Shown in pieces: positions 1 to 26,960 of a stretch of DNA of 32,000 nt. The position numbers and the translations under genes were made by a program. The DNA lies in assembly GCA_030429145.1 (NCBI GenBank), contig JAUIDC010000001.1, forward strand, positions 480,001-512,000. The letters are read 5' to 3'. The stretch comes from Candidatus Saccharimonadota bacterium (GTDB lineage: Bacteria; Patescibacteriota; Gracilibacteria; Absconditabacterales; Absconditicoccaceae). Position 1 is the stretch's first letter. Every line of letters begins with the position of its first letter. The notes under the pieces are model-generated. The model worked only from the letters and a program-made list of their open reading frames with translations, was not told the DNA's origin and made no database searches.

Positions 1-368
1 GCAAGAAGAAACCTTGGCAGTACTTTTTTTAGTTCAAATGCGTCTTTGCTGAAAAACGATTTGAGAATGCCCGCAAGAAAGAGAAATCACAGTATGAAGT
101 TTGCTATGTTCTTCATATAGTTCCATAGCTTAAAGAGAGCGCTATCGAGATGGATGAATGTACCATAGATGAAATCATTGGACATAAGCTTCCCTGCGAG
201 AAATGCGAGGAGCATCCATCCCCATGAAAGAACCTTTACTATGGCATTAAAGATTTCAACAGACCATGATACTGCAGGATCTCACTCGGCGGCAAAAGCT
301 GGATGTATCCAGAAGAGACATCCTAGTCAGATTAGTATAACTAACGCTTTTGCGTGCTGTTTCATCAT
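1..368 (-). CDS. N-terminal part of a polytopic membrane protein that runs off the left edge; paralog of the N-terminus of 371..2965; translated with UGA=Gly
   Basis: ATG at 366-368 lies 2 nt after the TAA of the upstream gene. Reads MMKQHAKALVILI[TGA]LGCLFWIHPAFAAE[TGA]DPAVSW...HLDSALFKLWNYMKNIANFIL[TGA]FLFLAGILK. It aligns with ...QLDSALFTFWNIVKNFANFAL[TGA]FLFLRSILK in the neighbouring gene, with TGA at the same column. It has 3 in-frame TGA and no TAA/TAG. Confidence 0.6.
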
Positions 369-370
369 GA

Positions 371-2965
371 TTATTGGTTTGTTGTGTTAGTAGTATTGTT
401 TGCGTTGTTGTCTTTATCTTTGTTTGTGTTGTTAGTGTTTTGTTTATTATTGTTGTTATTTTGAGATTGATCGTCTGCATTATCTGCGCCATCATTAGCA
501 GATTTGTTGTCGTCAGCAGCAGTCTTATTTAACCATGTGCTAAATGGAGTAGCTAGAGTTGTGTTGTCTGGTTTCATCTTCTTCATTGTCTCTTTATCTA
601 TAGTAGGAAGGAGTGACTCCCAAGAAGCCTCGTCTGTATAGTTTGTCTTAGCACTATTGCCTTTCTTTTGCGATACGAAACCATCTTTCGTCATAGTATA
701 GGTTGTGCCATCGGGCATGACGAATGATTTATCTTTTAGCTCTCCTTGCGCTGTGGCCTGGCTTGCTTCCGCTGCAACCTGGTCGATTTTGACAGTGATG
801 TCATCCTTTATGTCGTCTCTACCAGTATAGAAGTCTTTGATCTGCTGTGCGGTGAGTCCTGCGCCTCCAGCTGCGAGAGGAGTTGCGAGATATCTGACGA
901 AATCATCGTTTTGGAATGCCTCGTTTACGCTCTTGAAAGGACCAATCTTTCTTGTTTCAGCAATTTTGTTTACGAGGTCCAGACTCGGCTGTCCGTATTG
1001 GCTCAGGTCGAGCTGATTACCTTGGAGAGTAATACCTGCATTGGATGCATTGTAGAGAGCTCCTGTCGGTCATACGAGCGACCCGATTTGCTTGTTCACG
1101 TCGGCGTTTGTTTTGATGCCAGCAATAGCGCTTTTAATCTGAGCCTGTCATTTACTCTTCTGATCGGTAAATGTACCCTGGAAGATGTTTTCAATAGTAG
1201 GGGAAACAACCGTTCTTGCATTTTCCTCTGAAGCTCTTTCGATCTGATTTCCGATCTTTGAGGTTGTGTTTTTCAGTGCTGCGATACTTGTTCCACCTCC
1301 GATAGGGATGATTTCTGCCGTAGAGACAGCATTGGTGGCAACTTTTTCTAGGCTGTTTACTACGCCTCCAGTAAACGATGTGCTCTTCATCGCTGTCATG
1401 ACGATCGTCCACATGAGTCCGGTTCCGAAGATGTTGAGGATAAGCCATGGAAAGAAGTCGAGCATACCTGACACACCAAGATCCTGCGAAGGATTGTCGA
1501 TACAAAGCGTCGTAACAACAAGATTGATACAGGTCTTGTTGTTTTCGTTGAATGTGTTCATGCCTACGTCTTCTAGGCTGTTTCCCTTTGTAAGTCATTC
1601 GCTGAGTACTGAAAGGAAGACGATACTAATACTGATGGCAAACGTAACGATCACAGGAAGGAAGATCATTGCAAGAGCGTTTTTTACTGCGAATTTATCA
1701 TAGTTCTTTCCGATTTTACTAAGACTAAATCAAAATACTTCACTGAGTACCAATACTGGCGAGAAAGCGATTGTGATCCAGAGGATAGCAATTCTAATGA
1801 TGAGTATCACACACAGTATGAGTAGTGGAACAAGATATGCGATACCTATGATAGCTTTAATGATAGACTCCATAGTCATGGCTCCTATCGACTTGTTGAC
1901 GTTGACATGGATACTTCCAAGGTTGAGAAGACTACCGTAGAGCGTGTAGAAAGCGCCTTGGTATCCTTTAGATTTTTGTACGATACTTGAAATGTTCTGA
2001 CACTGATTGAATGCATCATTACAGTTGTTTTTATCAAGAAAGTCTTCTTGTGACTCATCGAGGAGTCTCTTGAGCTCTGGCGATCCAGAGATGATCTTGT
2101 CGCTATCTTGTACAATAGAAAAACTGAGGACATTGTTCCCGAACATACAGTAGTTCTGGTTGATATTATCCCAGGTAACATCGGTGTTTCCAACTTGTCT
2201 TCCAGTCGTGGTTACTCCATATGCGGATGCCCACTCGTCACCTCTGAGAAGTTTTTGGTTTTTCACTGCACAAGGGAGGTAGTATTCTCCTTCCGTTGTC
2301 GGGTAGGTATAGAGGATAACAAATCCTTTGTCGGCGGTCAGCGAGTTTCCAACGTCAGAGACTTTCAGATTTGTTTTTGCCCCAAATACTGGCTTTTTAC
2401 CGACCTCTTCTTGTCTGACAAGCTGCAAAGGTAGTCCGCCAACACCGATAGTTGCGACAGTTGATAGGTCGATGAGCGCTCCCATCACGAACCAACTTGC
2501 TTGGATACCAATACCAGCAATAAGAAGCTTTGATATCATTCCCATAGGGTTGGTCGCTTTGCTTCAGAAGTTGAAAATATATTTCAGTATGGACCGTAAA
2601 AAGAGGAATCACAAAGCAAAGTTAGCAAAGTTTTTAACGATATTCCAGAAGGTGAAGAGTGCTGAATCAAGTTGAAAATAGCTTCCATAGACAAGTCCAT
2701 TGTCGAGTGCGAGGCCTGCTAGCATCAGTAGTGGCCACATGAAAATATAGATCACCTTGAGGATGACCTCTAGCGTATCTGCGAACTCTTTTTGGCTATC
2801 TACATCGCTTGTGGTCGTTTGGCTACCCGTTGCAGCGTACACTACGGGGCCGTTGTGTACCACTTGCCCTTGATGGTTTTGTTGTAAAGGCACAAAAAAA
2901 GTAGCCAGTCCGACCATACCAGCGAGGAGATACTTCGTTCGTTTTTTTATTGTGTTTTTGTGCAT
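371..2965 (-). CDS. 864-aa polytopic membrane protein with a large extracytoplasmic loop and an Asn/Thr/Lys-rich C-terminal tail; topology resembles VirB6/TrbL but the family is not recognised
   Basis: Track ORFs 2609..2965, 1730..2545, 1148..1561 and 371..718 share one frame. I read the gaps 2546-2608, 1562-1729 and 719-1147 codon by codon and the only stops are TGA (2609, 2564, 1730, 1595, 1148, 1070). The true stop is TAA at 371-373. It has an N-terminal signal/anchor (MHKNTIKKRTKYLLAGMVGLATFFVPL), several hydrophobic segments, a central hydrophilic loop of about 190 aa, and a low-complexity tail (NNNNNKQNTNNTNKDKDNN). Confidence 0.75.
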
Positions 2966-3041
2966 TATGGCAATGCTGTTTGATAAAGAAATAGCTCTTT
3001 ATCAATTATAGGGAAGGGTGCCCCTAAACACGAAAATTAAC

Positions 3042-4256
3042 TTATGAAAGGATGTTTAACTCGTCTAATAGTTTGCGATATTTGTCAAAATCCTCTCATG
3101 TTCTTGACTTAATAAAATCTTTAACGATAATCTTTCGATCAACCAAACTCTCCTGGAGATTTTTTTGTGCGATTTCGAGCGTAAATGACATGTCTCCCGA
3201 GTAGTGAGATTTTCTCTTTAACGCCACATCTTTGACAGTGTGTAGCAGATTTGGCTCGATGTGTGTTTGGAGCTCATCGTAGCTGATAGACTCGGAAAGT
3301 ACTGTCAGATGGGTCTGAGCAAGAGTATAGTCGGAAAATGAGAGTGAAATGTCTCGTTTCCCACTAAAATTCTTTGCAATATTCTCGTCGATAGATTTTC
3401 TATGTTCTAAGATCTTATTTGCATTGAGATGTTCATCTTTTGCCAGAGCAACTACTATATATGGGTTTATTGCTACCTGTTTTGCCGTTATCTTGTTGGT
3501 TTCGCCATCCCAGCGAAACAGAAATTTATGGTGGTCTTGTTCCAGTGGTGATGTATACCAGATACTACCCGTACAGAGGTAGTTTTTATAGGCAAAAGGC
3601 ATATGGATGTGCCCTGAAATCAGCTGGATGTTCTCATTGTCTAAGAGTGCTGGGCTCAATGCAATATCCTTGTAGTCAAAAATGGCTTGCTGCCCAGGAA
3701 ATTTCGTGTCAGCGATATAATAGTGATGAATGATGGTTAACTGTTTATATTTTCTTATATACTCTTCTAAAATGATATTAATTTCACCACTTAAACGTTC
3801 ATTATTATTCTTCGACGAAAGTAGTGTCTTCAATGTGTCGTTTATCTTTTCTGAATCTTTTTCTTGAGAAGGGGTAATGTGTTTTGTAAATGGGAAAAAA
3901 AGAATCTCTTTCCCTTCCACAGTATGCACCTCTGGCGAAGTGATAAAACGAAGTATGTTTCCACCTTGATCTGGTAGCATATCAGCGATCTTTTTTCCCT
4001 CAGCGTAGACAAACTGTTGCCCGATCCAGTCATGATTTCCGGCGAGAATATAGAGACTTTTGCCTTTTTTCCGGAGCTCTAAGAAAAGGTCAAATAGCGC
4101 TGCTAGAGCCTTGCGGTCATAACTAAACATGTACATATAATCTCCCATGAAAATGAGGTTTTTTTCTTCCGGAAAACTGTCGACATAGTGCTTAATAGCG
4201 TCGATGATGGCGTGTGTATGTTTTGTTGTGATGTGTATGTCTCCTATGAGTAGCAT
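3042..4256 (-). CDS. Calcineurin-like metallophosphoesterase (Mre11/SbcD-type motif set), 404 aa under UGA=Gly
   Basis: Motifs present: LLIGDIHI (DxH), FMGDYMYM (GD), LAGNHDW (GNHD) and SGHIHMP (GHxH). The preferred start is MLLIGDIH at 4254-4256, because the longer track ORF start would overlap the upstream gene. The track ORF ends at TGA 3096-3098. Reading through adds GEDFDKYRKLLDELNILS before TAA at 3042-3044. Confidence 0.8.
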
Positions 4257-4294
4257 AAGAGCACTATAATTATTGGGTAGAAAATATCTATATC

Positions 4295-6301
4295 TTATTG
4301 TCCTCTTTGTATTTTTTTCTCGAGATTTCCTGCTGTGGTATTGATGGCGTTCATAGTGTCGGCTACTTGTTGCCACAGGAGAGCATTTTGACTCATAAAG
4401 TCGCTAATGAGCGTTAACATGTCGTTGTTGAGCGTTTTTGCTAGGGTATATGGAAATGAAGGATCGAGAGTGTTCGTCTGTTCTGACGAAGCATAGAGTG
4501 AAAGATTGGTAGAAGCTTGCTGCTGTTTAACTGGATTTGGGAGAATGATATATTTGTTTCTTTCCTGACCAACAGGACTATCTATGTACCTTCCTTGGCG
4601 AGCGCGGTCAGCGATAGCCTGCTGCTGTGATTTCTGAGCATTTTCTTTGTCTTTGTAGAGATTTGAGTCATAGATTGGTTTGAAAGCGATATTCATATCA
4701 AATGAGAGGATTTGATTGAGTTTGATCTTCGAAAGGGATGTGTCGAGAAATTCAGTGCTTTTTGTGTGTTTCATCAGCTGCCCAGAGTTTTTGAGCGCTG
4801 TGAGCACTGCATTTATCTCATCGACAATCTCTTCGACAGTTTTGACGGTCTTTCATCCGATAACCTCGGTCTGTGCAGTCGGTACAGTACAGACGCTGAT
4901 ACCAAAGATGCCGTTGTCGCTGTACTTTGTCCCACACAGACACTGCGCTTGGCAGACAGCTTTGTCTGCAGGAGCCAGTCCATCACATCTTGATAAACAA
5001 GAGTTTGCAGTGCTGTTTGGGTCGTTAGTCGAGCCATTGTTGCTTGATCCATTTTGGTTAGCAGAGCTACCTAAATTGGCTACTGCTGCGCTTGTTGGGC
5101 TGTTTTGCTGTAAACTTGAAGATCTGAGTGTCTGAGCAAGCGCAGCTGGTGCATTTATGGCACTATTGTATGTGCTGAGAGCTGAGGCGAGATTTTGTGC
5201 CTCAACGATCTGATTAGTTGCAGTCTGTTCAGCGCTTATTGTCGGTTCTTGTGTTGATCCAACAGGAGTGACGCATACGAGGCTGTTTTGGGGATTTGCC
5301 CCTATTGATTGACTATTGCTACGCGTGCTGGTTGATGCGCCATTGGGACTACTTGTAGTAGTCGTGCCTTGTACCGTCTGATGGTAGTTTGAAAGTTGAT
5401 TGAGTGACTGCGTTGCAGATACTGAGACAGATGTACCGACACTGTTCGTAGAAACTGCTGTGCTTGAGCGAGTGGCGCTTACCCCTGCTGATTGAGTATT
5501 ACCAAATGTGATACCGGCGTTGGTAGTTCCACCATTGCCACTCGGATTGAAATACGTCGGTGAGCCTCCAGCTCATCACAGACCAGGGAAATCATAGAGT
5601 ATAACTTCAGGAGCTGCGGTATTTGACTTGAAGAGGACATCTCCGATCATTTGCATGTCTAACAGTAGATCAAATGGACTGTCGTCCAGTGAACCATTGT
5701 AGAAGATGTCGTCACCACGATTCGCTGCATCCATAGTATTTTTCTTGGCTGCAATACTTATCGTATTGGTAAATGCTTGTGAAACAACCTGTCTACAGTA
5801 CGTGTAGGCTTCCTGTGAGTAGTTATCGTTCAATTGAAACTCCTGAAAATCTTGTCATTTTGCGCACTGAGCGACTCTTACGCAGCTTCTGACAAGCTGA
5901 TCGTTGTCCACAGCAAAGCTTGGTTTGCCGGTATAACCCGCAAACGATGCATTGAGTATTGGATCGCTAGCTGCGATAGTAGAAATGTCTGACGAACTGA
6001 GAGAGCATTCGTATTGTGCATTGAGGTTGTCTGCGACGCTTGAAAATGCCTCAGAGATAGAGCCTAGGGTGTTTTTTCTGGCGAGTGAGTAGGCCTGATC
6101 GTATATATTTCCTCACTGTGCGAGCGATTTGGTGAGAGCAGAAAAATCTTCTTCTTGGCTACGAAGATAGGCCTGTTGGATCAGTGTATCAACGGGGAGT
6201 ACAGAGACTGCATATATATAATGTGGAGCTACAAGAAAACTACCAATCGCAATGATGGTGAACAAGCTGTATGAGAGAAGGGTTTTGCGTGATAGTTTCA
6301 T
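4295..6301 (-). CDS. 668-aa secreted or anchored protein of unknown family, with a central Ser/Thr/Asn/Gly/Ala-rich low-complexity region and a Cys cluster
   Basis: Track ORFs 6113..6301, 5576..5833 and 4295..4807 share one frame. Gaps 5834-6112 and 4808-5575, read codon by codon, contain only TGA stops (6113, 5855, 5576, 5573, 4853). The true stop is TAA at 4295-4297. N-terminal hydrophobic segment: MKLSRKTLLSYSLFTIIAIGSFLVAPHYIYA. Cys cluster: CLSRCDGLAPADKAVCQAQCLCG. Confidence 0.75.
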
Positions 6302-6327
6302 GAGCCTTGCAAGAGATAAAGAGCATG

Positions 6328-7479
6328 TTATTGTTTTTGTTGTACATTTCTTAGTTTGTAGTAGAGTTGGTGTATTGGTGTGTAGATACGGAGTAATGAC
6401 TTCCTAAAGGCTATAATATCCTCATAATAGGCAAGTAGCCCAATATGGATAGGAAAGGCAGCCTGCATGTTTTGGAGCGTTTTCTCGGTAAATGCGACTG
6501 CTTCCTCACTGAGAGCAACTTCTTGCCTGAGGCGCATCCTTTCCTGGTCTGCTTCCATAGATGTGTCACTATAAGCGCGGAATTTGTTGTATGCTGGGAA
6601 TTGGAGCTGTTCGATGGTTATAGTAATGAATAGTTTGTAGAAAAGCAGTTCATTGTAGAGGAGATTGTGGAAAGACTCTCGAGAACTTGTGTTGAGGTTG
6701 CTGTTGTCAAAGGCACAGACGAGGAACTCTTTTGATGTCTCAGTACATTTTTTCCCCTGTGCTGTCAATAGTCTTCACGCATCGACATAGTTGGTCTGCT
6801 CTGTAAGTGTTTGTGCTTGTTGGATGAACTGTGCAAGGACATTACGTGTTTGTGGATGGAGACAAGGAGCCTCTTTTTCAGATCCTTGCGTTGCTCCAAG
6901 ATAGGTGACATTTTTGCTACCACAGATGCTATCACCAGGTCCAAAATAGGTATCTGAGAATGCCTTAATAGCTTCGTCAATAGATCATTCCTGGTAGCTA
7001 TAGAGCTGAGCGAGCTTTATCTTGCTGAGATCATTCATGACGATGGCAAAGAGCTGAGGGAAGAAGCTAGCAAGATCACATGAGGTCATGTCTCCATCTC
7101 GTTTGCAACCCGCAATCTTTTCTTGCTCTCGGTCAAAGGAGTTTGCATATTGCTTTGCTAGCTCAGATTGCTCGCTGTGGGTACAAAGTATGCTAAGAAA
7201 GAGAGATTGCTTTGGATCATAGTAGAGCCCTGGTGCTGCCGGATCGGTAAATCCTTGTGCCTCGGCCGTTGCCTCACAGTAGGCTTCTATCAGTCACTGT
7301 CTCGATGTATTCCCTTCGAGTCCTAACGACACATTGGTCATAAGGTTGTTCACGAAACCCTCTTTTGTGGTGTCTTCTGAGTATCCTTTTGGTACATTGC
7401 TGAAAACAACTGCGCTTGCGAGTGCAAGAGTAGCGATGCATAGTGTACTCATAAAGATAATCTTCTGACGTTTGTGCAT
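6328..7479 (-). CDS. 383-aa signal-peptide protein, largely helical with several Cys, family not recognised
   Basis: Starts MHKRQKIIFMSTLCIATLALASAVVF. Track ORFs 7294..7479 and 6328..6768 are in frame. Gap 6769-7293 read codon by codon has TGA only (7294, 6985, 6775). The stop is TAA at 6328-6330. Confidence 0.75.
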
Positions 7480-7496
7480 GGTCTCTTATAAATATA

Positions 7497-8867
7497 CTAA
7501 TAATAACATGTTCCTCAAAGGTTACTACATTGATTTTCGCAGGCTTTCCCCAGATTTTGTGTGATACTCTTTGCTTTCTGTGCATCACCAATAATGTTGA
7601 TGGCTCCATAGACAACAATGCTTGTACGTGGCATCTCTCTGGTGATTACCAGTGGATCTGCTAGTACATGGGCTTGCCGTGAGGACTTGCTCTGTGCAAG
7701 GGTCGTGTTGACGTCGGAGAGAAGCGCAGTGTAAAGACTTTCTGATGCGCGTCTTGTGGCAAAGTCAGGAGTTTCAATATCAAAGAGTGATCTGGATGGT
7801 AATGTAATGGCGCTCGCTTCGTTGTCGTTTTTTGTATAGAACTCTTTGACGTCGTTGATTTCACGAGCGAAGCTATTGCCGAGGCGTTGCATGCTGTTTG
7901 CCAGTGCTGAGACGCCTTCTCTGTTGGCGTAAGGTCACTCTATGCCATAGAGGTTTCTGAGAAGGTCATTTTGTTTTTCTCTAAAGCCGAGGTCTTGGCA
8001 CTTAACACTTGATTGCTTTGCAAATGCACATTTTAGTCTTTCGAGCGATGTCTTGATGGTGTCGACAGCTTCCTTTGTGTCGTCCTTCGCTCCATCTCGC
8101 GTCTCTGAGACGTTCTGACCAAATCTCTTATAGGTATCGTCACACTTGTTGATACCTCTGGTACATGCATATTCTTCTTGAAGGGATTCATAATTGATGC
8201 TTGTCAGGCTTATACCCAATTTCTCTCCATGTTTTTCCATAAACACATTGAATCCGTTGGTATTGCCTCCGGCAATGAACCTCTTGTATGCTTGATTGAG
8301 ATCCCGTAGGGCAGCCATGATTTCTGAAGCCGAACTGGTCGGTTCACCTACCACCTCTATAAATGCGTCTTCCTGATCTCCGTATTTATTGAGTACTTCA
8401 GTAATTCTTTGTCTATAGTCTTGAATGTTACGAATGAACGCTCACGCTTGTCACAAGTCAAAAAGTGTATCGGCAATATCTTGATCCAGTTGATCGAGTT
8501 TCTCTCGGTCTCTCATCAGGGCCTTTGAGTTGGTCATCACAGCGAGTTCTTGGCGGACACTTGAGGTCACTATCTGTGTTCCGATGGTTCCCATAAGAAC
8601 ATTGAATGTAACAGCAGTTTGTCCCTTCTGATTGAGGTTGTTTGCGATACGGGTAAGAACGTCAGTGTCTGTGCTTTGCTGGATATTTGTTTGTCTCTCA
8701 TTTGCTACTGTCTGTAGCGTTTGTATCATATCGTATGAAAAATCTATGTATTGATCAATAACGGGTGAAGTACTGGCACATCTCAAACATTGTTCTGCAG
8801 CAAAAGCTGGGGCAGTCAGCCCGATGAGTCAGAGTACACTTACTACAGCTATTGCTCGTTTTTTCAT
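7497..8867 (-). CDS. 456-aa signal-peptide protein, family not recognised
   Basis: Starts MKKRAIAVVSVL[TGA]LIGLTAPAFAAEQC. Track ORFs 8451..8786, 7935..8354 and 7515..7892 share one frame. The gaps contain TGA only (8829, 8451, 8442, 7935, 7515). The stop is TAG at 7497-7499, after ...CSNL[TGA]GTCYY. Confidence 0.75.
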
Positions 8868-8888
8868 AGAGAGAGTATGAGATAAAGA

Positions 8889-9740
8889 TTAGTTTGAACA
8901 CATTCTTGTCCCTTCTTGCACTTTTCCGTTAACTGATGAGAAGGTTTCATTGATACGAGAGAATTTATCTATGAGTGTTGCCCGTCTTGTTTCGAGAAGG
9001 TAACTTTTTGTATATGTTTCCCAGACATTGGTCATGAGAGTGTTACTTTTTCTTACCATGAGTGTTTGTATGTATGTCATTTCATCTTCGATGCGTCTTT
9101 TTGCGAGATCTTCACATCAAGCGAGGTTGTAGCGAGAGTCGAGATCACTAGTCGTTACAAAGAACTTACTTGTGACGCAAGCTGCTTGTCTACATACCGC
9201 CGTATATCTTGTTGCGAGATCAAGATCACCGTAGTTTTCTATCTGGCAAGTGTTGTTGTTGATGCGAGCTTTGTATCGGCCTGCTGGGTCCCGTACTTGT
9301 AGAAATGTATTTTGTAGGCTTACGGGAGCATTTCATTTTCCATCGTCTTCTCGTTCTTTGAGCTTTGTTGCCCATTCGTCTCCTTTCGAGTCTTTGCTAT
9401 CACCAAGTTGATCATCAAGTTTGAAGAATCATCTACTCACAAGATGGTCAAAGATATATGGGCTTTCTGCGTTGCTAGTGTTTTGTGTCGGTCCTTCACA
9501 CTCGTTTACGATGGATCCTATCTGACAGCAATATGATTTCAGATCTGCCAGCGCTCCTTCAAGGTCATCGCTACTCAGTGGATTAACAGTAGTAACATTG
9601 ATAGAGCTGAGCGGGTTGAAGTTCTCATTTGCTACCAAGCTACAATCATACAAAATATCAGCACTCGCAAAACTGCTGGCGATGGCCAGTCCTACGAGAG
9701 AGATAGATCAAACTGCTTTATAAAGCATCTGTCTTTGCAT
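8889..9740 (-). CDS. 283-aa signal-peptide, Cys-containing protein, family not recognised
   Basis: Starts MQRQMLYKAV[TGA]SISLVGLAIASSFASA, 5 nt after the giant gene's TAA. Track ORFs 9429..9653 and 8889..9080 are in frame. Gap 9081-9428 has TGA only (9333, 9117; also 9708 and 9429). The stop is TAA at 8889-8891. Confidence 0.75.
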
Positions 9741-9745
9741 GATTT

Positions 9746-12700
9746 TTATGGAAGGGGCTCTGGAATAAAACGAGTAGTCGCGACTTCCGTTCCTTGGCGG
9801 TCATAGAAGGCAATAGTGATAGCGTTGTCGTTGTATGAGTAGGTTCCAGTAAATTCATTTTTATATGAGTCAGATATCCAGATGGTTCCTTGTGTTCCAA
9901 TATAGATCTGGCATTGTTCTTGTTTGTCTGCGATACAAGTACCATTGCTAAACGTCTGACCATATCAGTCGTCTAGTTTTTTCTGTCATCGATTTGCTGT
10001 ATCGGTAATAGTAGTGTTTAGAGCACTCTTTCCTTTGAGGATTAGAGAGAAGAGGACTTTGCCAGTCGTTTTCTCTTTGAGGAGAATGGTCGGCGTATTA
10101 GATGTAAACACTACCTGTATATCTATAGCTCATTTGAATGCATCATCAAGAGATATTTCACCAGTGTTTTTGTCGATAGTACCAATGCGTTCTCCTTTGT
10201 CATTGTGGAGTGCAAGTCTATTGTCTTTAATGAATACTCATCCTTGTAGCTGTTGTTGGTTGAACCCAAGAGGGAAGAGCGAAAGAACATTCTTCCCTGT
10301 ATCTACGCCAGTAAGGAGTGATCGTATTCCACCCCTCTCTCTTTCGAAGATCACCTTGCTGTTGTCGAGACCTTCTGAGATGGCTGTATCTATGGTGCTA
10401 GTCGTGTCACTTGGACGGTCGACATTGGTGATAGTTATCTCAGGTTCTTTCCATGATATATTGATATTGCTTGATGCAACATTTCCTTGGTTGTCTGTTG
10501 CAGAAATAGTGAGCACCTCACTGTTGGAGTTATATCTGAGAGAGTTAATGGTCGTTCTTGGTCCTGCTGCTGTTTGGGTGTTTCCATTTGGGAAGATGAC
10601 TGTATTGTTTTTCACTCCACTGTCATCTGACCATTCGATAGCAAGCGAATAGTTATTACCAATAACTGGTTGTAGATTTAATCCGTTTGCTTCGACATCT
10701 CCATTTTGAGACCTGATAAGAGAGACTGTTGCAACAGGTCAGAGGTTATCTCCTGCTGCCTGGATACCTGCTGCTTCCTGATGAGATCGTGCTGAGTTTT
10801 TCTCTAGTAGAGTAGCCGTTCTTCCAAGTGATCTACTACCAAGTTTTGCAACAGAGAGATATTGCCATGCTCTTGGTAGATCTGTAAGAGTCAGACCGAT
10901 AGTGTCGTCGTTGCTGTCAAAGTAGGTCACACGGAGTACGCTACCATTGTTGATAAGGTCGCTTACTCTCTTTTGACCGCCGAGTAGTTCATCATAGAGG
11001 AAGAGTCCATCGAGATTCGTTCCTGATGCGAGGACGAGTACATATTTTGTATTGCTTCTATTGAGAGCATGAGAGAATCTATGATGCACTTTGTCGGTAA
11101 GTTGTACAACATATCCTACGGCACTATTGTTGTCCCATCCTAATGTGATAGTGTCGAAGCTCTGTCCTGCCACGTTGAATCCTTGAGGAGCAGTGTGTTC
11201 ATCTCGTAGCTTAAATGTACTACCTGCTACGTTGAGCCATCCACCTCTTCTTACCTCGTCAGCAAGATCACTAGGCGATTCAAATGAAGGAGTGCGATAG
11301 AGACGAGTAAATCTTGTGGTCGATTGATCTTTTTCTGGGTCTGCATACTTTATCCAGATTTGTTTGCTATCCCATAAGATGATGTCTTCTTTTGCATCAC
11401 CATTGAGGTCATTGCGTATCTGATTTTGTTGTAGTGTATCTATGATGTCCTCTCTGTTGACGACGTTGACCATGTCACCATCCGTATTTTCGACGAAAAC
11501 TCATTTGATATACTGGCTAATGTCTGCCTGAGCGGTTCCTGCATTTGTGCTTCATCCATGTCATGATGGGTTACCAGAGCTATTGGCTGCGAGCAGTATA
11601 GGTTCCTTTTTGTCGTCTATCACTTCTAGTCCCGCATTGACAGCTCCTAGTGTGCGTGAGACATATTGTTTGGTTTCATTGTAGGTGAGGAGTGACATAT
11701 TGAGTTCTTCAGGAGAACGAGTAGCAAGAGCATGCGAGAATCCTTCCATAACTTTCTTATTGAGTTTCAGATAGCTTGTTGTTGGATGAGGCTCTGTCTT
11801 CACTGTGTCGATAAGTTGGTGATTTGCATTGAAGAATGCAGAACTCAATGTCTTGTTGTCCGTGTTGTCGCTCACGAGAGTTGTTTGCAGAGAGTCTATA
11901 AAGAGATCGTAGTCATTTATTATCTTTTCCTGTATCTCACCAATTTCTTTCTTTTTCTCATCTACTATATTTTCTGCTTGCTGACGTATGGCCTCAATAC
12001 CCTCTATATTCATCTTCACCTCTGAAGGTGTGTTGAGGAATGCAATGACCTGATCAAGCTGCACTTGTCTTTCCATCGATGTGTCTACATCACGTAGTGC
12101 ATGTAGTTGAGTGAGGAGATCCTGACGTCAGTCGGTTGTGTTGTCGTACGAGAGATCTCGTCTTTGTGGTCGAGCGAAACCTTGTAGATTGATGTTTCCA
12201 TTGAGATTTCACTGATCAACAGTGTTTTGTAGAGTGTTGCTTATGTCTCCAGCTTCTGCAGAGAGCTCACCGATGTTCTCGCTAACGACATTGGTAAATA
12301 CTTCATTTGTCTTGCCATTGATCTGATCAGCAAATGCTGCGAGGATGTCGTAGATCTCATCAAAGTTAAGTTGCATATTGATATAGGTATCTATCTCAAT
12401 ATCGAAGCCTCTCAGAGGTGGGGTAATTCTTGTGACACTGAGACTATCAAACGGTTCCACAGATCGGCTTCTTTGCGTCATCTGTTCTATCCTTGTTTTC
12501 ACTCCCTTCTCAGCTACCAGTCCAATACCTCATTTCACGATACAGAAGACCTTGGCGATAAATTCAGCCACTTTCAGTGTTTGTTGAATTTGTGGAGCTA
12601 TCTTTGGTATACGAGGTGCCGGAGGCAGTGTCGGTAGATTAAGCTCGATGTTTGGTATAAATGATGGAAGTTCTGGTAGTGTCGGTGGCATAGGAAGTAC

Positions 12701-15700
12701 TGGTATCTGTGGTATAGACACATTGAGATTCGTTTCTAGATCTATAGTTGGAGGAGTTGGTAGGTCTGGAACTCTTGGTAGTGGTACATTCAATGGAACG
12801 AAATTGAATTTAGGTAGGACAATGTCCATGCCAAGATTTATATTGGAGAGGTCTATATTGATGTTTGGTATCCTGAAATTTGGTATCGGTAATACAGGGA
12901 GATCAATACAGAGGAGACTCAAGGTACAAGAGTAGAAGTCGTAATTGTCTACCTTACACTTTCCACACTTTGTCTTCCAGTTTACCGAGAAGTCTATGAG
13001 CACTTGCCATGTTTTGACTGCGCTGATGAGGAGAATGATAGCATCTACATATTGCTCAAATCTTCTTGCGTTGAGTTGCAGCCAGTTTGTTATACCATAG
13101 GTGAAAGTAGATATAGTATCAGAGACTTCTGTAAGATATCTTTGTGATACACCAAGCCATTTATTGAGTTCAATTGGAAACTCTCTGTACTGTTCAAGTA
13201 CATTGATATTTTGTTTTAGTGCTCTGACTACCTGCGCAGATTTGCTACTGACGCTAATGTACTGTTGTAGTTTTTGTTCACATGCACTTCTTTCAAAAGC
13301 AGATGAGTATGCAGCACATGTGCCTTCTATACTTTGTGCTAACTGATTTCGCTCTTGTAGTGTTCTTTCATTTCTCTCTGCTCGGTCGGTGAGATAACCC
13401 TTATATTTTGTTAAGTCTTCTTGTGCGATGAAAGGAACCTGTATATTGATGTTCTTCGTATTGATGTTGATGAGTGGGACGTTTTCAAAAAGAGAAGAAA
13501 GAGCGTCGAAAGGATTTGAGACTGTATCACTATTTTGTCTCATACCTTCTCTACTAAAGAGGCTTTGTGCAACATTTTTTCTTGCCGATGGTCCTGGATC
13601 TGTCTGATTTTGGACATCCTCATAGAGCTGCCCAAGTCTGTCGAGAGAGAGGGTGTCAAATCACTCAAAAAGAGAGGATAGTTCAGGTAGATAGAGATTG
13701 ACTTGTAGGTTTGTCAGATTGTTGATGATATATCTGATCTGATTGTCCATCCACTTGTTGATGATACATTTTACGAGGCCTTTCACATTTCCGCCTTCTA
13801 TTTTAAGGTTGATAGATTGTCATCATCTGAGTGATTCGCTACCTGCAGAAAATCTCGCAGATGAGACATATGCCGGTTCTTGATCAAAATGTATAAGATT
13901 TCATGCATAGCCTCCACCTGGAGCAGAACTACTTCCCGGAGATGATGTTGCACTACCTCCTGGAGTAAGAGCGAAAGGAGAAGAAGGTCTGTTAGGATTG
14001 TTTGAAGGACGGTTACATGTTCCACCTTGTGCGAGGTTGTATTGTCGTGATGGCACGGTAAGTTGTGTGTTGGCAGGATCATTGTTGTTTTTGTCTTTGC
14101 CAAAGTTTTTCGCAAGGACGATACAGTTTCCTGCTATATGTCTAAATGGGCTTGGAATCTTTGCGCCTACAGTATAAGGGCCAAAACAGATTCCGATACC
14201 GACACCCATGGTAAGTGTTGGAGACACGTAAATTCTTATCATAGAAGGATATGCACCACCTGGTCCCCAGTAGAATCCATCGGTAGAGCCTTTGAGTCCA
14301 TATGGAAATGGTACGGTATAAGGACCAGCATAAACAGTTCCTGGGAAGAAGAAGGCAGGCAGTCCTTTGTCTACCATGAGTTTACATCCAAATATATTAT
14401 ATGTTCCTGGCGAGAGGAAAGCCATATTAAACGGCACTGGTGGTCAGCTAGTTGCTCATCATTTGCCAAGCTGAAATCACTGGCAGAGGCCCTTTATCGC
14501 AGTGTCTACTTGTAACTCTGCCTCATCAACAAAGTCCTGAAATGCTTGATTGTTGATGTCTATCGAGAGATTGCCACCTTGGATAAATGTCTGTCACTGA
14601 TTCCATTGCTCAAGTACTTCATCCATGCCTGGCATGTCTACAACTTGTGGATCATCACTGTCTGCAGCTTCTTTAATTTTTCACTGCACATCAGCAAGAA
14701 GATTCTTTACAGCATTTTCTGCTTCTTGTTGTGCTTGTGTAATATCACTTGCTAGATTGATATATGACTCTGAGAAGTTCTTGCCTCTGTCAGACATGAA
14801 TGTTCGATAGCCCTGCTGGCAGCTATCTGTAGAGTAGGTTTTTATGTCGGTGTACTCATCTTTGTTGATGTCTTCTAACTCTATGCTAATCAGCGTCGGA
14901 GCGACATAGTTGAGTGTATAAGAAAATGAAACAGTTTGTCAGGCCTGTAGGGTGATGTTGTCTACCATATACTCGTATCCATTGGATATGTTCCAGTCTA
15001 CGACTGATGCTGTCGGTAGTGTTCATCTATTTCGTGATGAGATGCTACCATCATCATTTTTCTCGATCTGTCGTGGTCCTTGTATCTGATCAAGGTAGGT
15101 GAATTGTGTAGATTGTCTCGCTGTAAGAGTAACAGTTACTTTTATCTGTTCTCCATCAGTAAGTACGCCATTTGCTGTCCTTGAGTATTCTTTTGCAATA
15201 CTGATAGGGGAATTATTGTCCAATAAATGAATTGGCATATAGGCAATGTTTTCTGTGGTGATATTGTTTTCGTATGAAGGTAGTTTACTGATTGGCGATG
15301 AAGAGTACTGGATAACTTCAGGGAGCCCACTGTTTACGATGTTTGTGACATCTAGTGTTGAGAAGTCGCTGTCTTTTCCTTTGACGAGATTTTGAAATTG
15401 TGGCTGAGATGCTAGAGCGGAGTCTGTATCATTGTTAGGATCTTCTTCAGCAGGAAGAGTCAATCATCTTCGATGAACAAGGCTGTTGTCATAAATCTTT
15501 TGTCCTGGGGTGAGTGTAACGCCGTACGATTTGATAAGTTTTTTATTTGCATCAATTCTTGTCTGTCGGTTTTCATCACAGTCGCTGATATTCTTGGAAA
15601 TATAATTGTCTCATGCTGATGAGTTTCCACCATAGAAGAGCGTAATATTTCAGAGGGTATCATTGGTAACAATATCTATGCTTCCATCATTATCCATGTC

Positions 15701-18700
15701 TCTCACAAACATCTCATGGGCGTTTTTTATGTCCTCATCACCTCATGGTATAGCAAGACATATTTGCTTTCCATCAACGTCCATTTTTCCTTCGTTATTT
15801 TTATATACTCTGAGAGTATCTTTATTTGTCTGTACGATGATATCTTCATAACTATTGCCGTCTGCATCACCAATAAAGACATTTTTTATACCATCAGCAA
15901 TGAGCATAAGCATTCATAGGTCATTGAATGGCTTGTTTTCACCTCCGTGATTTTTGAGTATTCTTACACTTCCATCAGTGTAAATTACAAGCAAATCTTT
16001 TTGTCCACTTCTGTCTAGATCGAATGGTAGTGTTTGAGAGATGCTTTTCTCCGATTCCGTGAATGTAAGTTCACCGATACCAGCATCGTAGTCTGTTGAA
16101 ACAACTTTGCTATTATTACTCTGACGTGCGATCAAAGGATCTCCGTAGGTGATGAGAAATGGAGATGCCCCGTGTTGAGTCGATTCTCATACATTGTCTC
16201 ACTGGGCAAAAGCTGTAGCTGCTTGGAAAGTATTTTTTCGATTGGTCTGTGTGTCTGCGTCACGACTTTCCTCGATACCTCCATTCCAAGAAGTTTGAGA
16301 ACTGAGAGGAGATGCATTTCTGTCGTAGACTATCCATCATGCAGGACTATTTGTCGATCATCCAAGCCAGCTCTTTTCTACTCAAGCATTGTCGCTAAGA
16401 TTAAAATAGTTTTCTTGTAGGCTCGCATGAAGACGAAGTGTTCCCACGCGTTTCCCTTGTAGTCTTACCTCCCATATCATATCGCGGTTGTTGTCATAGT
16501 TCTGTGTTGATACAATTTCAGCTGCGTTGTTATTGCTGTTAGGATTCCAGACGGTTTCTCCATTTACTACAATAGATCTGTTTTGAACAGTGTTTGAAGT
16601 AATCGAACTGTCGAGCTGTTCAGGAGTGTAGATGATAGTGTTGTTCCCTATGCTTTCATTGGTAGCTCACTGTCTTACTGCGAAACCATTAGCATTTCCT
16701 AGAGAGACATATCAATACTTATCTAGATCATAGATAAGTTGATTATCTTTTGTACTAAGTGTTACAGTATGACTGTCATATATTTGTCCGTTTTGACTGA
16801 TGCGTGCAAGAGCAGGCATGACGCGTTCGGGGTGTGTTAAGAGCGTGGTGACGGCTATAGTCTTATCTGAAGAGCGGATAGTATCCCCAGCTTCGTTGGC
16901 TTGTTCTGTGAAGTAGCCCCATTTGTTTCATCGGTCATTACCAGCAAGAAGGAGGTACATCGCATTGAGGTTTGATGACTTTCGTTGTGGCGCCAAAGTA
17001 GTGACTGTCTGAGTGTCACGTAATTGCTCATTAATATTTTTATTAGCTATCTCAGCATACAGATAATGATTGCCTCCTATTTTGCCGCTGTCGATAGTGA
17101 ACGAACCAACGCCATCTTCATCAGTGCTTACCGATGTATTTTTGTTTCCATTGATAGTTATGTCTCCGATAGCTGTGATATTAACTGTCGTCGTGCTCGA
17201 AACAGGGTTGTTTCGTCTGTCATAGACCATTGCTCTTGCAGAAAATGTTTTGTCGGCAAGCATGTTTTCAGGAGTGAGCAGTGCTACGCGATATGGCTCT
17301 GCCGACTCAATAGTTACAGGAATTGTTTGGAGGGTAAGTCATGGGACCTCTATCGTTAGAGTGTCGTCTCCTGCGCGGAAAGAAGGATATAGGAGGATAG
17401 TTGCAACACCGTTTCTTATAGAGAACGATTGTTGTTCGACAAACTCTTTTGATGTGATGTTTCTTCATGACACAGCATATGTTGTTTGTTTTGAGCTACC
17501 TGGTATGAGTAGTCCGTTTGTGCTTCTCACGATAGCAGTAGAGTCTAGAGGATTGCCATTTGTATCTGTGAGTGTTAGTACAACTCTTGGTAGAGCTGAC
17601 TCTTGGAGCTGCGCCACGTTGTTTTGTGTTGAGAAATAGTTGTCGGTATTTTCAGGGAGTGTGATATTTATGTTAGATGCTGTTTGAGAGTTGTATTTTA
17701 TTGAAAGTGTTCCGTTTGTCAGAGAGAGAGATTTAGATGCACGAGGCGCAACACTTGTAGAATTTGGGTTGATAGGTTCAAGAACGAGATCTATCGATAA
17801 TACATTTCCAGGAAGGTTTGCTGTGTCAAGATAGTATGCTTGTGTATCATTGAGTTGTTGCAATTGGATTTCCCTTTCAGCTGTTCCGTTGCTGATGATC
17901 TGTCAGGCAGAGGTGGTTAGTCTATATGTCGTTGTGGTTTGTTCTACTTTATTTCCGTAGGTGTCATAGCCTGCGACTAAGATAGGGAGCTGAGAGTTGT
18001 AGAGAATTCTCTCTGTCGGTGTGATAATCTCTGCTCTTGTCATAGCTCCTGCTACGATAGGTATAATTATCTGTTTTTCTGCACAACGAGAACCTTGACA
18101 GACTTTGACATCCAATATGCTTGAACCTACATTTGTTGAAGCGAGGCTAATAGGAATAGCGCGTGGGTTGGTAAAGAGGTTTTCTTGGAAGACATATTCG
18201 GACTGACAAAGGTTTCTGTTGTTTGCGATCGGGCAATTGTCTCCTGTTCCACTGAGGCGCACTGTAAGCGATCCCAAGTCATCTTTACTAGTGAGACTGA
18301 GGGCAACATCATCTCTATCGTCCATACTCACACTTGCTTTGTTGAGTCTCATAGTAAGCGATGCATCGAGAGAACGAATGAGTGCTTGTGCATCTTGTGA
18401 AAGATTTTCACTTCCTCCTCATATCAATGCTTTCCATTTGTCACTAAAGCGCTCTACGTTGTCTCATCGCTGTGTTGCTGTTTGCTCAAACTGATCAAGA
18501 GAAAGAACAGGTCACTGAGCATTGTTGAAATTGATTTTTACTACATCAGAAACAGTGAGCTCTTTCAAAGAGTCCATCCAACAAGAGAGGGCTTTAGGCC
18601 ACTTTAACAATGGTACTGTCGCATTTTTTTCGATACCGCATCTTTTGTTCCTTTCTGTTTCTATCATTTCCAATCATGCATTTTGTGCATCGCTACGAGT

Positions 18701-21442
18701 ATTTGCTGTTGCAGAAGCAACAATCTTTTCTTGGTTGATAGAAGAGACAATAGCAGGTGTTGTAGTATTCTCTATGATATCATTACCATCGGAATTGATA
18801 TAGACTAGTTCATATCATTTTGGTTCGTATTCAGGCGTGATAGCAGAGGAAGGGTTATCATTTTTAGTAAGATATTGTTCCACGACGTATCCAATCTTTT
18901 TGTTGATATCCAAAGAGGACTGATTGTTTTGGAGATCAGTCATCAGGTCATTTGATGCTGGTTTAGTATATCGTCAAAGGTTATGTCGGTGGAGTATTTG
19001 TGCGACCTCGTTAATGGTGTTTTCTCCAAGTACGTTGATGAAGAAGTCGCTAGGAAGAGTATTGTAAGAGCGTCATTTAGGCGATGCGAACTGATCTACA
19101 GTTGTCAGCTTGTCATAGGCAGCAGCTCTTGATGCATAATAGCTCGCTGCTTTTGTGTTTTCCTGTGAGAGTGTAAGATTGATCGCTGTCACCTTTTCTT
19201 GTAAGTATTGTTTGATAGCATCTGCAATTTCGGCAGGAGATTTAAGTGTGAGCGTATCATTGTTTTTATTGTAGACTTCGACATTGTAGATGTTTGGATA
19301 GTCAAATCTGATTGCGCTTCCTCAGATACCTTTGAAAGCAACATAACGAGTGCTGTCGATAGGTCTGTCTTGGGTAAGAGGATTCATATTTTCGATTTGC
19401 TCTGGAGTCGGAGATGTATGAGACTCTAATGTACTGATGGTTTTATAAACATAGTTGTCTCCACAAGCTTCAGGGCTTGTGTTCTGATTGTTATTTGTTA
19501 AGTGTACTCTCGAAGGAGATGATTTATATGTAGCGAAATATTCAACGCTTCCTGGTTGCTTCTGAGGGTAGCCATTGTACCGGTTTTCATTTACTTCTCC
19601 TGGAGGAACTGTCTTGCCACATACAAGCCAAGGAGCAACGCGATACTGTTGTGTTCTATGTAAGAGTGAATTGGTTAACTCTTCAAGAAAGTACATCTCT
19701 TGACTCATTTTTGTGAGAGTCATTTTAGAACCAGCAATATCAAAGACAGGTCAACCAATGCTTGTGTCAAAGCGAGGATTCCATGCCATCTTTGGATTGT
19801 TTTGTTTGAGTTGCATAGTATCTCCATCGATATTGAGAGGACTTATACCTCCCCAATATTTAGTTACAAAGTCATCTATCTCTTGGCTTGCTCTACACTT
19901 TCTATCTTCATAAAATTTTTGATCACTTGGTACAAGCATCGTATTGTAACCTCTAGAACTTTCTACCTGCCTAGAAGAGATACCATAAGAAGCTCCTATA
20001 GATCTGGCTGTATAATCAACATCGATATCATCTTGGTCTCCTTCGGTTGTATAATCATATGTTGTCAAGTTCTGTCGACTTCAAATATTCTTCCATGTGC
20101 CTGGATAGATAGATATATCCTGTGTTGAAGAAACATCGTAAGCGCTTCTTCCAAAATAGAAATTTTCAAATCTCTCTTCCACGAACTTCGGTAACAATGG
20201 AGGCGGTGCACCACATCTGACTTTTTCATATACAAGAGGAATAGGGATGTGCAGATCGTAGTTTTCTGTATCTAACTTATTGTAAAGTGCATCTTCAAGT
20301 AACGAGTTTGCATCTAGTAGAACCACGCTTGTAATATTGTCTTTGAGAACAGTCTTTTTGATGTGGCTATCAACGTCCGTATCAGACCATCTTCCACCAG
20401 CTTTGACATTTTCAGATATACTTGTAAGAAACTCGGGTGTGAAGAGACTCGTATAAGGGTGTACCAGTCCTCAAAGTGACTGTCCGATCATTAGTGTCGG
20501 GATCCTGTCGCTGTCACCTCCGACTTCATTGAGGTCTGCGTCAGCTTCTTGAGCCATCCTATTGAGATTGTTCTTTCGGCTACTGATAGTAGAGTTATAC
20601 TGTTCTCCGATCTCTCCAAGTTCGCTATAATCATCATCTGTAGGTAAACTGTTGTTTGCTGTATAGTTGCTGACCAGAGACACAGCGCTTTCATTCGCTC
20701 CATCTTTAAAGTAGTCTACTATGAGGTTAGTAAACCTATGATAGGTCATGTCTTCATGAAAGAGGAAGCTATTGGTATATCACGATAAGAACTGATCAGA
20801 AAAATATTTCTTGAGTCCAATAAAGTCGTCGTATCGTATTTTATTGCTTGCATAAGCTGCTGGATTTTGATCGTAGTTCCTTAGTTTTTGAAAGAACTCC
20901 GCATATTCAGCCGTGTCATCAAACTGTATCATACTTTGTCGGATGTCTGCTTTTTGATCTCCGTTTTCGTGTGGGACAAAGTAGGTAGAGCTTGGGTCAA
21001 ACACATATGTGGGTTTTTCGAGGTCGGTATATGGGTATATACTTGGATAGACGTAGTTATTTTCTTTGATAACAGGAAGCGGAAGGTCTCCTATGAGGAT
21101 AGTTCCTATCAGTGCTGACTTCTTTTCTTTGATGCCTTCCTGATAGAGATTTTCCAGCATCTTCCATATGTCTGTAGATTGGAAATTATCTTTGTTGATA
21201 GGCATAAGTAGGGCTTTGGTCATCGAACTGCGCTTTTGTAGGTGGTTTTGCGCATACCAGTCGATGTCGCTACGATATTGTTGATAGATGTTTCTATCTA
21301 CAAAGACAGCTATGATAGATTCTGCTGATTCGTCTGCTGCCTGAGCTGTATTACTAAAGCCAAAAATCCACTGTGTGAACGAGTGGGAGAAAAAATATAT
21401 ACCTATCAATATACCTATACTTACTTTGGTTTTTACCGACAT
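9746..21442 (-). CDS. Giant 3,898-aa secreted surface or adhesin-like protein with bacterial Ig-like and FG-GAP-type repeats; translated with UGA=Gly
   Basis: At least 17 track ORFs from 20780..21517 down to 10238..10615 lie in one frame (end coordinate mod 3 = 1). I read every inter-ORF gap codon by codon and found 51 in-frame TGA, no TAA/TAG and no frameshift. The preferred start is MSVKTKVSIGILIGIYFFSHSFTQWIFGFSNTAQA (ATG 21440-21442), which reads as a signal peptide. The stop is TAA at 9746-9748. Confidence 0.85.
12593..12907 (-). repeat. Periodic Pro/Ile/Leu/Asn-rich segment inside the giant protein
   Basis: About 105 aa read IDLPVLPIPNFRIPNINIDLSNINLGMDIVLPKFNFVPLNVPLPRVPDLPTPPTIDLETNLNVSIPQIPVLPMPPTLPELPSFIPNIELNLPTLPPAPRIPKIAP. 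It is preceded by a Cys knot, KCGKCKVDNYDFYSCTLSLLC. Confidence 0.6.
15464..16135 (-). other. FG-GAP/VCBS-like Asp-rich repeat region inside the giant protein
   Basis: Repeats of the DxDxDG type: DLDRSGQKDLLVIYTDGSVRILKN, GDADGNSYEDIIVQTNKDTLRVYKN and DMDNDGSIDIVTNDTL. One more copy lies near 11400 (NDLNGDAKEDIILWD). Confidence 0.55.
16928..18352 (-). other. Bacterial Ig-like (invasin/Big-type) repeat region inside the giant protein
   Basis: Segments typical of Big domains: VAGYDTYGNKVEQTTTTYRLTTS, LTLTDTNGNPLDSTAIVRSTNGLLIPGS and MVYDRRNNPVSSTTTVNITAIGDITINGNKNTSVSTDEDGVGSFTIDSGKIGGNHYLYAEI. A further Ig-like unit lies at about 10238-10615 (ISATDNQGNVASSNINISW). Confidence 0.6.
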
Positions 21443-21550
21443 GAACCAGAGTACTATACAAAGAACCTTACAATGCCTCTTTTCTATGTATATACAGCAT
21501 AATTGCAAGCGTTCCACCTACCAATCCTGCATAAATAATATGTAGTATAT

Positions 21551-21585
21551 AAAAAAGTCCCTTCTGTGAGAGAAAGGACTTTTTG
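21551..21585 (-). terminator. Rho-independent terminator after the fibre-protein pair (symmetric A-run/T-run, could act in both directions)
   Basis: The sequence aaaaaAGTCCCTTCTgtgagAGAAAGGACTtttt has a 10-bp stem with one mismatch and a 5-nt loop, flanked by an A-run and a T-run. It lies 34 nt downstream of the TAATAA stop at 21616-21621. Confidence 0.6.
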
Positions 21586-26932: not shown

Positions 26933-26960
26933 TTGACTTTCTTTTGATTGTCAGTATAAT
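26933..26960 (+). promoter_or_regulatory. Near-consensus sigma-70 type promoter (TTGACT-N16-TATAAT) facing the S8 peptidase gene
   Basis: TTGACT sits at 26933-26938, followed by a 16-nt spacer and TATAAT at 26955-26960, about 130 nt upstream of the ATG at 27090. It is identified by sequence match only, in an AT-rich intergenic region. Confidence 0.4.

Follow-up and report, generated by a model that had tools for sequence, protein, structure and literature searches.

An eight-gene envelope operon with a giant FG-GAP protein and candidate VirB6-like membrane proteins in an Absconditicoccaceae bacterium

We analysed a 32,000-nucleotide (nt) stretch of a genome assigned to the Absconditicoccaceae (assembly GCA_030429145.1, contig JAUIDC010000001.1, positions 480,001 to 512,000 of the forward strand; hereafter the window), and found that its first 21,442 nt hold a real, conserved envelope operon of a predatory or parasitic bacterium of candidate division SR1. 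Eight genes on one strand, G1 to G8, encode a giant exported protein with FG-GAP repeats (G1), four further exported proteins (G2-G5), a metallophosphoesterase (G6) and two paralogous polytopic membrane proteins (G7 and G8). We lean, by a modest preference, towards reading this array as an envelope operon for host contact, linked to the non-conjugative type IV secretion system (T4SS) whose genes are dispersed in its lineage. Absconditabacteria (candidate division SR1) have 1-Mb genomes and live as obligate epibiotic predators or parasites; their cultivated members are epibiotic predators.

An operon read with UGA as glycine

Under translation table 11 the region 1-21,442 contains only short open reading frames (ORFs), whereas treating TGA as a sense codon opens long ORFs on the minus strand. 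With gene starts set at ATG codons and translation in code 25 (UGA = Gly), G1-G8 contain 81 in-frame TGA codons, 51 of which lie in G1. Where TGA falls at conserved columns in the window (amino acids (aa) 139, 142 and 451 of G3, aa 119 of G7 and aa 136 of G2), the orthologs carry either GGN or TGA, and Trp is absent from the common residues at every TGA column of the ortholog alignments. These results point to code 25 rather than code 4, in agreement with the code used by the initial annotation of this DNA, which was made from the sequence alone. All close homologs of G7 and G1 belong to Absconditabacterales/Gracilibacteria, with G1 also having distant homologs in Peregrinibacteria. Named sources are Candidatus Vampirococcus lugosii, Candidatus Absconditicoccus praedator and Absconditabacterales, the first two being described as epibiotic predators in PMC8080830.

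The genes run in the order G1 (9746-21442, 3898 aa), G2 (8889-9740, 283 aa), G3 (7497-8867, 456 aa), G4 (6328-7479, 383 aa), G5 (4295-6301, 668 aa), G6 (3042-4256, 404 aa), G7 (371-2965, 864 aa) and G8 (1-368), all on the minus strand; the window edge cuts G8, leaving its first 122 aa only. Successive genes are separated by 5, 21, 17, 26, 38, 76 and 2 nt, and none of these seven gaps contains a terminator-like site. An intrinsic terminator of the upstream gene U1 (21551-21584, minus strand; 14-bp stem followed by U6, free energy -15.7 kcal/mol) lies between U1 and G1. The transcription unit therefore begins at G1, whose promoter must lie within 21443-21550. The longest gap, between G6 and G7 (76 nt, 2966-3041, minus strand), contains an AT-rich 11-bp hairpin lacking a U-run (2980-3005) and a TATAAT sequence (3005-3010). 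This gap may hold an internal promoter or a processing site serving G7-G8, which would fit the occurrence of G7-G8 as an independent module elsewhere. Reading by eye revealed no obvious purine-rich (AGGAGG-type) Shine-Dalgarno sequence 5' of any start, and tRNA and Rfam searches of the window returned no matches. The composition of 1-21442 is homogeneous (tetranucleotide correlation 0.86-0.93). Hydropathy analysis identified N-terminal hydrophobic signal or anchor segments in G1-G5, G7 and G8, leaving G6 as the only product without one. The initial annotation had described an operon-like array with these coordinates and gaps, in which seven of eight products carry a signal peptide or transmembrane (TM) segments, and our analysis upholds both statements.

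Beyond its N-terminal signal or anchor, G1 carries FG-GAP/VCBS-type repeats at about aa 1808-1940, detected by Pfam FG-GAP_3 (PF13517) in two stretches (E=4.8e-8, 33.9 bits against a cutoff of 26.9); the G1 family consensus matches the same model at E=2.2e-10 and no other Pfam family. A Pro-rich repeat region is flanked by a pair of conserved segments of moderate hydrophobicity, at aa ~2798-2820 and ~2958-2977. Homologs of 3300-5500 aa number 36 and are distributed across Absconditabacterales, Gracilibacteria and Peregrinibacteria. The repeats account for only about 130 of the 3898 residues, and the remainder of G1 gave no match. They are the one feature behind the earlier name of giant adhesin; that label is weakened, while a giant exported FG-GAP protein is upheld.

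Each of G2-G5 combines an N-terminal signal or anchor with invariant cysteines. The exported, Cys-rich G2 has seven Cys that are invariant in relatives, and the exported, helical G3 has a signal peptide ending AFA/AE and a conserved C-terminal CxxQCxNxxxxC motif. G4, exported or anchored, has a highly conserved C-terminus (FPxHIGxxxYxE...YxxRNVQ) and is the best-conserved marker of the G3-G4-G5 triad, retrieving 49 related metagenomic loci. In the exported G5, a low-complexity S/T/N/G linker joins a conserved N-terminal block (GDDxFxNGSLDDSPxDLLxDxxxIGDxLF) to a C-terminal domain that is likewise conserved. These four mid-sized proteins had been called unrecognisable, and they proved so: as single proteins they have no significant match in Pfam or NCBIfam, nor do their consensus sequences in Pfam, and sequence and profile searches of PDB sequences with the G4 and G5 families gave no significant match.

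With the Pfam family Metallophos (PF00149; cutoff 21.5 bits) G6 scores 40 bits (E=7.3e-10), its metal-binding motifs GDIH, GD, GNHD, HH and GHxH are invariant in 7-8 orthologs, and it ends in a C-terminal helical extension. By sequence it is a cytoplasmic calcineurin-like metallophosphoesterase, so that its earlier description as a phosphoesterase is confirmed. In a profile search of the PDB the best matches were Mre11 (3qg5, E=0.067) and SbcD (E=0.7-0.8), none of them significant, and no SbcC-like gene is adjacent; assignment to the SbcD/Mre11 subfamily is not supported.

Gene order and modules in relatives

The complete G1-G8 order recurs in three related loci: L009, on the complete 1.1-Mb chromosome OZ246420.1 (42-67% identity), L016 (23-40% identity) and the metagenomic locus L030 (64% identity for G4). 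A third paralog follows G8 in L016. In L002, from Absconditicoccus praedator, G3-G8 follow in the same order, again with a third paralog, the upstream part being cut off. The order is thus shared, in full or for L002 in part, with at least four other Absconditabacterales genomes, identity ranging from 21 to 67% overall, and the arrangement noted in the window is thus conserved in relatives. L009 and L030 served as proxies for the sequence past the left edge of the window. Downstream of G8 in L009 are rplJ, rpsB, tsf, rpsF-rpsR and rpoB; no ATPase lies beyond this edge in the closest complete genome.

Across relatives, the array resolves into four modules, G1-G2, G3-G4-G5, G6 and G7-G8, which are apart in most of them. 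The order G3-G4-G5 is invariant in all metagenomic loci long enough to show the triad (49 loci recovered with G4). G1-G2 lies directly upstream of G3-G5 in tandem in 4 loci, and downstream in convergent orientation in 10 loci as well as in L007; survival of this neighbourhood through inversion is good evidence that the two modules work together. G2 follows G1 in L006, L007, L009, L016 and L030-L032; the same holds for nine of the ten loci of convergent type. The G7-G8 tandem pair is present in each locus extending far enough, with G6 directly upstream of G7 in eight (L001, L002, L003, L009, L013, L014, L016 and L030). Outside the clade of the window, G6-G8 and G1-G5 are usually unlinked. The suggestion that all eight genes specify one envelope-spanning apparatus is weakened by this separation.

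Two other neighbourhoods were observed around the surface-protein modules. In another clade a conserved gene pair precedes G3-G4-G5 in L045 (5050-8158), with equivalents in L041, L049, L055, L056, L061, L065, L067, L068 and L071; by eye, one product (~717 aa) has an N-terminal DnaQ-like exonuclease motif (DFETTGL) and the other (~331 aa) a HELGH zinc-peptidase motif. In L006 (23747-29411) a Cas12a-Cas4-Cas1 locus lies downstream of G1-G2, with one small opposite-strand ORF between them.

The membrane-protein pair and its type IV secretion context

G7 has approximately 8 hydrophobic segments in hydropathy plots, a loop of ~180 aa (aa 180-360) and a hydrophilic tail of ~330 aa. From this we infer a layout of 3-4 N-terminal TM segments, a Cys-containing external loop, 4-5 further TM segments with invariant P380, R391 and P403, and the tail. 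Such a polytopic layout with a large extracytoplasmic loop is found in TrbL/VirB6 proteins, although it is not specific to that family. G8 starts 2 nt after the G7 stop codon and has an N-terminus paralogous to that of G7. Its identity to the downstream partner in the pairs of L001, L003 and L009 is 51-64%; full-length G8 proteins in relatives measure ~620-680 aa. G7 and G8 cluster in one family of 2,844 cluster representatives at E<=1e-3, which, together with their hydropathy, substantiates the initial description of the two terminal genes as encoding paralogous polytopic membrane proteins.

The same annotation had compared this pair to VirB6/TrbL channel components, and here the evidence is mixed. 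When the consensus of a 169-member family hidden Markov model (HMM) was trimmed to the TM core, its score with the TrbL/VirB6 family PF04610 was 26.4 bits, just above the threshold of 25.9 (E=6.9e-6, profile positions 94-191). Two of four independently built sub-consensus sequences also matched (E=9.7e-5 and 0.0075), the other two giving none, and all three matches fall on the same profile region, 88-198. As controls, none of four reversed sequences and none of eight other family consensus sequences matched PF04610. In NCBIfam, the top matches of the G7 consensus and of two members were the mycoplasma integrative and conjugative element (ICE) membrane-protein models NF045889 and NF045848, with scores of 15-18 bits against curated cutoffs of 70-90. 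The NCBI name "type IV secretion system protein" is attached to the homologs P0008 and P0018, as it is to PF04610 proteins such as VirB6 of pTi. Searches of PDB sequences with G7 family profiles of 23 or 150 members gave no match. Two AlphaFold models were available for the G7 homolog P0001 (predicted local distance difference test (pLDDT) 57.8 and 70.2), the second of which has long helices flanking a beta-rich loop and a TM-core pLDDT of ~90.

A separate similarity concerns the N-terminal TM hairpin FWN(I/Y)(V/M)KN(F/I)ANF, at aa ~106-125 of G7 and ~80-99 of G8. This hairpin gives weak matches to T4SS_pilin (PF18895), at E=0.002-0.013 with consensus sequences in Pfam and at E=0.005 for G8 when a local pilin HMM was run over 12 sequences. 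The likeness may be due to chance between TM segments or reflect a pilin-like module.

Genes for VirB2-like pilins are found beside both halves of the operon in relatives. Pairs of PF18895 pilin genes lie 5-8 kb from G7-G8 in L002 and in the SR1-type loci L018, L021 and L024. In nine convergent-type loci of sister-clade Gracilibacteria, a gene of ~155 aa directly after G2 matches an HMM of PF18895 pilins at E=3.5e-11 to 2.4e-6 (L007 at 24211-24666, and L042, L043, L046, L047, L048, L060, L068 and L072). Both operon halves thus touch pilin genes in other clades. The window has no pilin gene after G2, the G2-G3 gap being just 21 nt. In the SR1 RAAC1-type loci L018, L021 and L024 (for example L024 12465-20539), G7-G8 are followed by a gene for a conserved 278-aa exported protein (f6), uvrA, a DUF1846 gene, a gene for a 237-aa protein (f33) and two PF18895 pilin genes. 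Motifs read by eye had suggested f6 as a VirB1-like transglycosylase, a candidate that we rejected after a PDB profile search gave no support. The resemblance of f33 to TrsD/VirB4-N was likewise by eye only, and a consensus Pfam search returned no match.

A T4SS-like system is essential for the epibiotic growth of related Saccharibacteria. In Gracilibacteria, the one survey to cover this lineage found type IV secretion genes to be dispersed and did not detect VirB6 (10.1101/2025.01.22.634366); both observations fit a VirB6 that is divergent and has been overlooked.

Taken together, the consensus matches, the ICE models, the NCBI names and the nearby pilins suggest that G7 and G8 are, on balance, homologs of VirB6. 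We posit that G1-G8 form one transcription unit, starting after the U1 terminator, that would supply envelope proteins for contact with a host or prey. G1 would be a giant Sec-exported protein with FG-GAP and immunoglobulin (Ig)-like domains, probably held in the membrane via two segments at aa 2800-2980, and G2-G5 would be exported, probably disulfide-bonded proteins acting with it. G7 and G8 would most likely be very divergent TrbL/VirB6 proteins, serving as inner-membrane platform or channel subunits of a chromosomal, relaxase-less, monoderm-type secretion system. G6 is a cytoplasmic metallophosphoesterase that accompanies G7-G8, and the VirB4 ATPase and pilins would be encoded elsewhere in the genome. 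The analysis establishes the gene models, genetic code, operon structure, synteny, modularity, family of G6 and pilin neighbours in relatives; VirB6 homology, membrane topology and a physical or functional link of G1-G5 to G7-G8 are inferred. A stricter form of the proposal, in which G7/G8 are the "missing" VirB6 of Gracilibacteria/Absconditabacteria and G1-G5 hitherto unrecognised extracellular parts of a T4SS-like host-interaction system, the two halves having been fused in Absconditicoccaceae, we regard as tentative and rather doubtful.

Several results weigh against this proposal. The consensus match to PF04610 clears its threshold by 0.5 bit; neither the consensus of one random half of the family nor that of the G8 type gives it, and G7, G8 and 27 relatives searched singly against PF04610 gave no match even at E<=10. 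Alignment of the G7 family to 37 Agrobacterium-type VirB6 proteins with hhalign gave a probability of 0.24%, with only the motif IAFSPxxxLxxVF of G7 placed against VAIGPLxLIGYLF of VirB6, and the G7 family HMM detected none of pTi VirB6, pCF10 PrgH, Tn916 Orf15 and pCW3 TcpH. Foldseek searches of the PDB with the two P0001 models returned no match at E<1, a weak negative since solved VirB6 structures, such as R388 TrwI, are only partial models. G2-G5 match nothing in Pfam, NCBIfam or PDB sequences. No VirB4 ATPase, coupling protein or relaxase is encoded in the window, and the flanks of relatives contain no VirB4 or coupling protein; among 872 ORFs within 10 kb of ~70 related loci, window proteins included, VirB4/VirD4 homologs numbered zero. 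The statement in the initial annotation that no ATPase is visible in the window therefore holds, and for VirB4/VirD4 extends to these loci. Finally, most genomes have G1-G5 and G6-G8 at unlinked positions, so that the fusion of these modules in one clade could be inheritance by descent with no functional meaning.

Flanking genes and rival explanations

Upstream of G1 on the minus strand lie U1 (21619-23511, 630 aa) and U2 (23563-26649, 1028 aa). Both products are exported and end in a Peptidase_S74 domain, which acts as intramolecular chaperone in endosialidases and in phage tail fibres. The two paralogs are tail-fibre-like, carry repeated PRC(D/E/G)CD cysteine motifs, and stand beside G1 in no relative examined. 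On the plus strand follow D1 (27090-30692), whose 1200-aa product is an S8 peptidase containing PKD/Ig domains and a type IX secretion sorting domain (Por_Secre_tail), and D2 (30883-31638), a Gln_deamidase_2 protein. D1 and D2 use TGA for 0 of 121 Gly codons, compared to ~19% of Gly in G1, and this block shows a tetranucleotide correlation of 0.66-0.75 to the remainder of the window, within which the values are 0.86-0.93. These features point to horizontal transfer from Bacteroidota into a code-25 genome or, alternatively, to a chimeric junction near 26650-27090, outside the array.

The alternative to be taken most seriously, though we judge it less probable than not, is that independent modules were juxtaposed by genome streamlining in one Absconditabacterales family, with G1-G5 as a surface or adhesion module, G6-G8 having a role outside type IV secretion, and G7/G8 being a lineage-specific membrane family whose likeness to VirB6 reflects topology only. 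This would account for the modules standing apart elsewhere: in L001, L003 and L014 the neighbours of G6-G7-G8 are genes for ribonucleotide reductase and ribosomal proteins, G7-G8 stands alone in SR1 RAAC1-type genomes, and G1-G5 occurs without G6-G8 in L031 and many metagenomic loci. It also fits the failure of all rigorous VirB6 tests on real sequences and the lack of a linked secretion ATPase. This alternative explains less readily why, in each of two independent libraries, the consensus has conjugation or T4SS membrane proteins as all of its top matches, with clean controls, why pilin genes recur by both modules in different clades, and why the fused order has been kept although identity fell to 21-30%.

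Two further explanations were rejected on synteny and composition. Were the array a prophage or some other phage-derived or mobile element, virion or tailocin parts would be encoded by the giant gene and the tail-fibre-like genes upstream, as the Peptidase_S74 domains of U1/U2 and the deviating composition and codon use of the plus-strand neighbours might indicate. However, megablast of the locus gave 0 matches among 50,697 phage records, an exact 52-mer from the left end of the window is not found in IMG/VR viral contigs, and capsid, terminase, integrase and tRNA genes are lacking; on complete 1.1-Mb chromosomes the array sits among housekeeping genes (ribosomal proteins, rpoB, SecA, ribonucleotide reductase), and U1/U2 are not syntenic with G1 in relatives. 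A phage origin is thus very improbable. Even less credible is an assembly artefact, by which the operon would exist in no single genome. The right-hand 5 kb (D1 and D2) indeed lack TGA sense codons and differ in tetranucleotide signature, the left-end probe was not found in the viral, genome and metagenome collections, and D1 is missing from the protein collection; but 1-21442 is homogeneous, independent assemblies, one of them a complete chromosome, show the same genes in the same order, and any chimeric junction would fall outside the array, near 26650-27090.

Comparison with known systems

Returning to the reading of a host-contact operon tied to type IV secretion, G7/G8 would be a candidate for the missing membrane subunit (VirB6) of Gracilibacteria. 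In the stricter and more doubtful form of the proposal they would represent a large VirB6 family (~2,800 representatives), absent from Pfam and missed by HMM surveys; the giant surface protein with its four partners would replace the adhesins or outer parts of classical systems, and the fusion of the two halves would make the organelle by which epibiotic predators feed and attach accessible to genetics in compact form. The five surface proteins, one of them giant, are inherited together; conserved throughout Gracilibacteria, they adjoin pilin genes in some of the genomes. The eight-gene unit is now defined, and co-cultures of Absconditicoccus and Vampirococcus exist. Even without a link to secretion, four families without a Pfam model (G2-G5) and one very large family (G7/G8) have acquired a clear genomic context.

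The closest comparison for G7/G8 is with TrbL/VirB6 proteins (PF04610), with which they share a polytopic arrangement, a large extracytoplasmic loop and a hydrophilic C-terminal tail, a family consensus that reaches the Pfam threshold, and a similar motif (IAFSPxxxLxxVF against VAIGPLxLIGYLF). Long hydrophilic tails are carried by "extended" VirB6 proteins, and the VirB6 genes of Rickettsiales are tandemly duplicated. In contrast, classical VirB6, at 295 aa, has a third to half the length of G7/G8, their genes are not beside virB4, virB3 or virB8, and single sequences, hhalign and folds gave no match. The mycoplasma ICE TM proteins (NF045889, Mbov_0396; NF045848, MMCAP2_0566) are the best NCBIfam matches, with alignments colinear with both TM clusters, but the scores are far below the cutoffs, the host lineage is another one and no ICE genes are nearby.

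At the level of whole systems, the surveyed patescibacterial T4SS (10.1101/2025.01.22.634366) belongs to the same superphylum, is chromosomal, dispersed in Gracilibacteria, and resembles the present case in the PF18895 pilins found near the modules in relatives. That survey, however, is without VirB6 in Gracilibacteria and does not describe a giant protein, G2-G5 or a metallophosphoesterase as associated, and the operon analysed here contains no VirB4, TrsD or VirB3. The prgQ operon of Enterococcus faecalis pCF10 likewise places large surface proteins (PrgA/PrgB/PrgC) upstream of channel membrane genes within one long operon. It differs in encoding PrgJ (VirB4), PcfC (VirD4), the PrgK hydrolase, a relaxase and LPXTG anchors, none of which was found here, and in being located on a conjugative plasmid rather than a chromosome; the G7 HMM misses PrgH, Tn916 Orf15 and TcpH.

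Giant membrane or surface proteins of Vampirococcus lugosii and Strigamonas (>1,500 aa, up to ~4,100 aa), with integrin/FG-GAP-type domains as in G1, are thought to mediate host attachment in Absconditabacteria (PMC8080830, PMC13059738). The passages retrieved from these papers by keyword treat such proteins generically and mention neither the neighbourhood of G1-G2 with G3-G4-G5 nor the fusion to G6-G8. What sets the present array apart from these known systems is its composition: a chromosomal cluster without ATPase or relaxase, in which a giant FG-GAP protein and four exported proteins are combined with candidate VirB6-like paralogs and a phosphoesterase.

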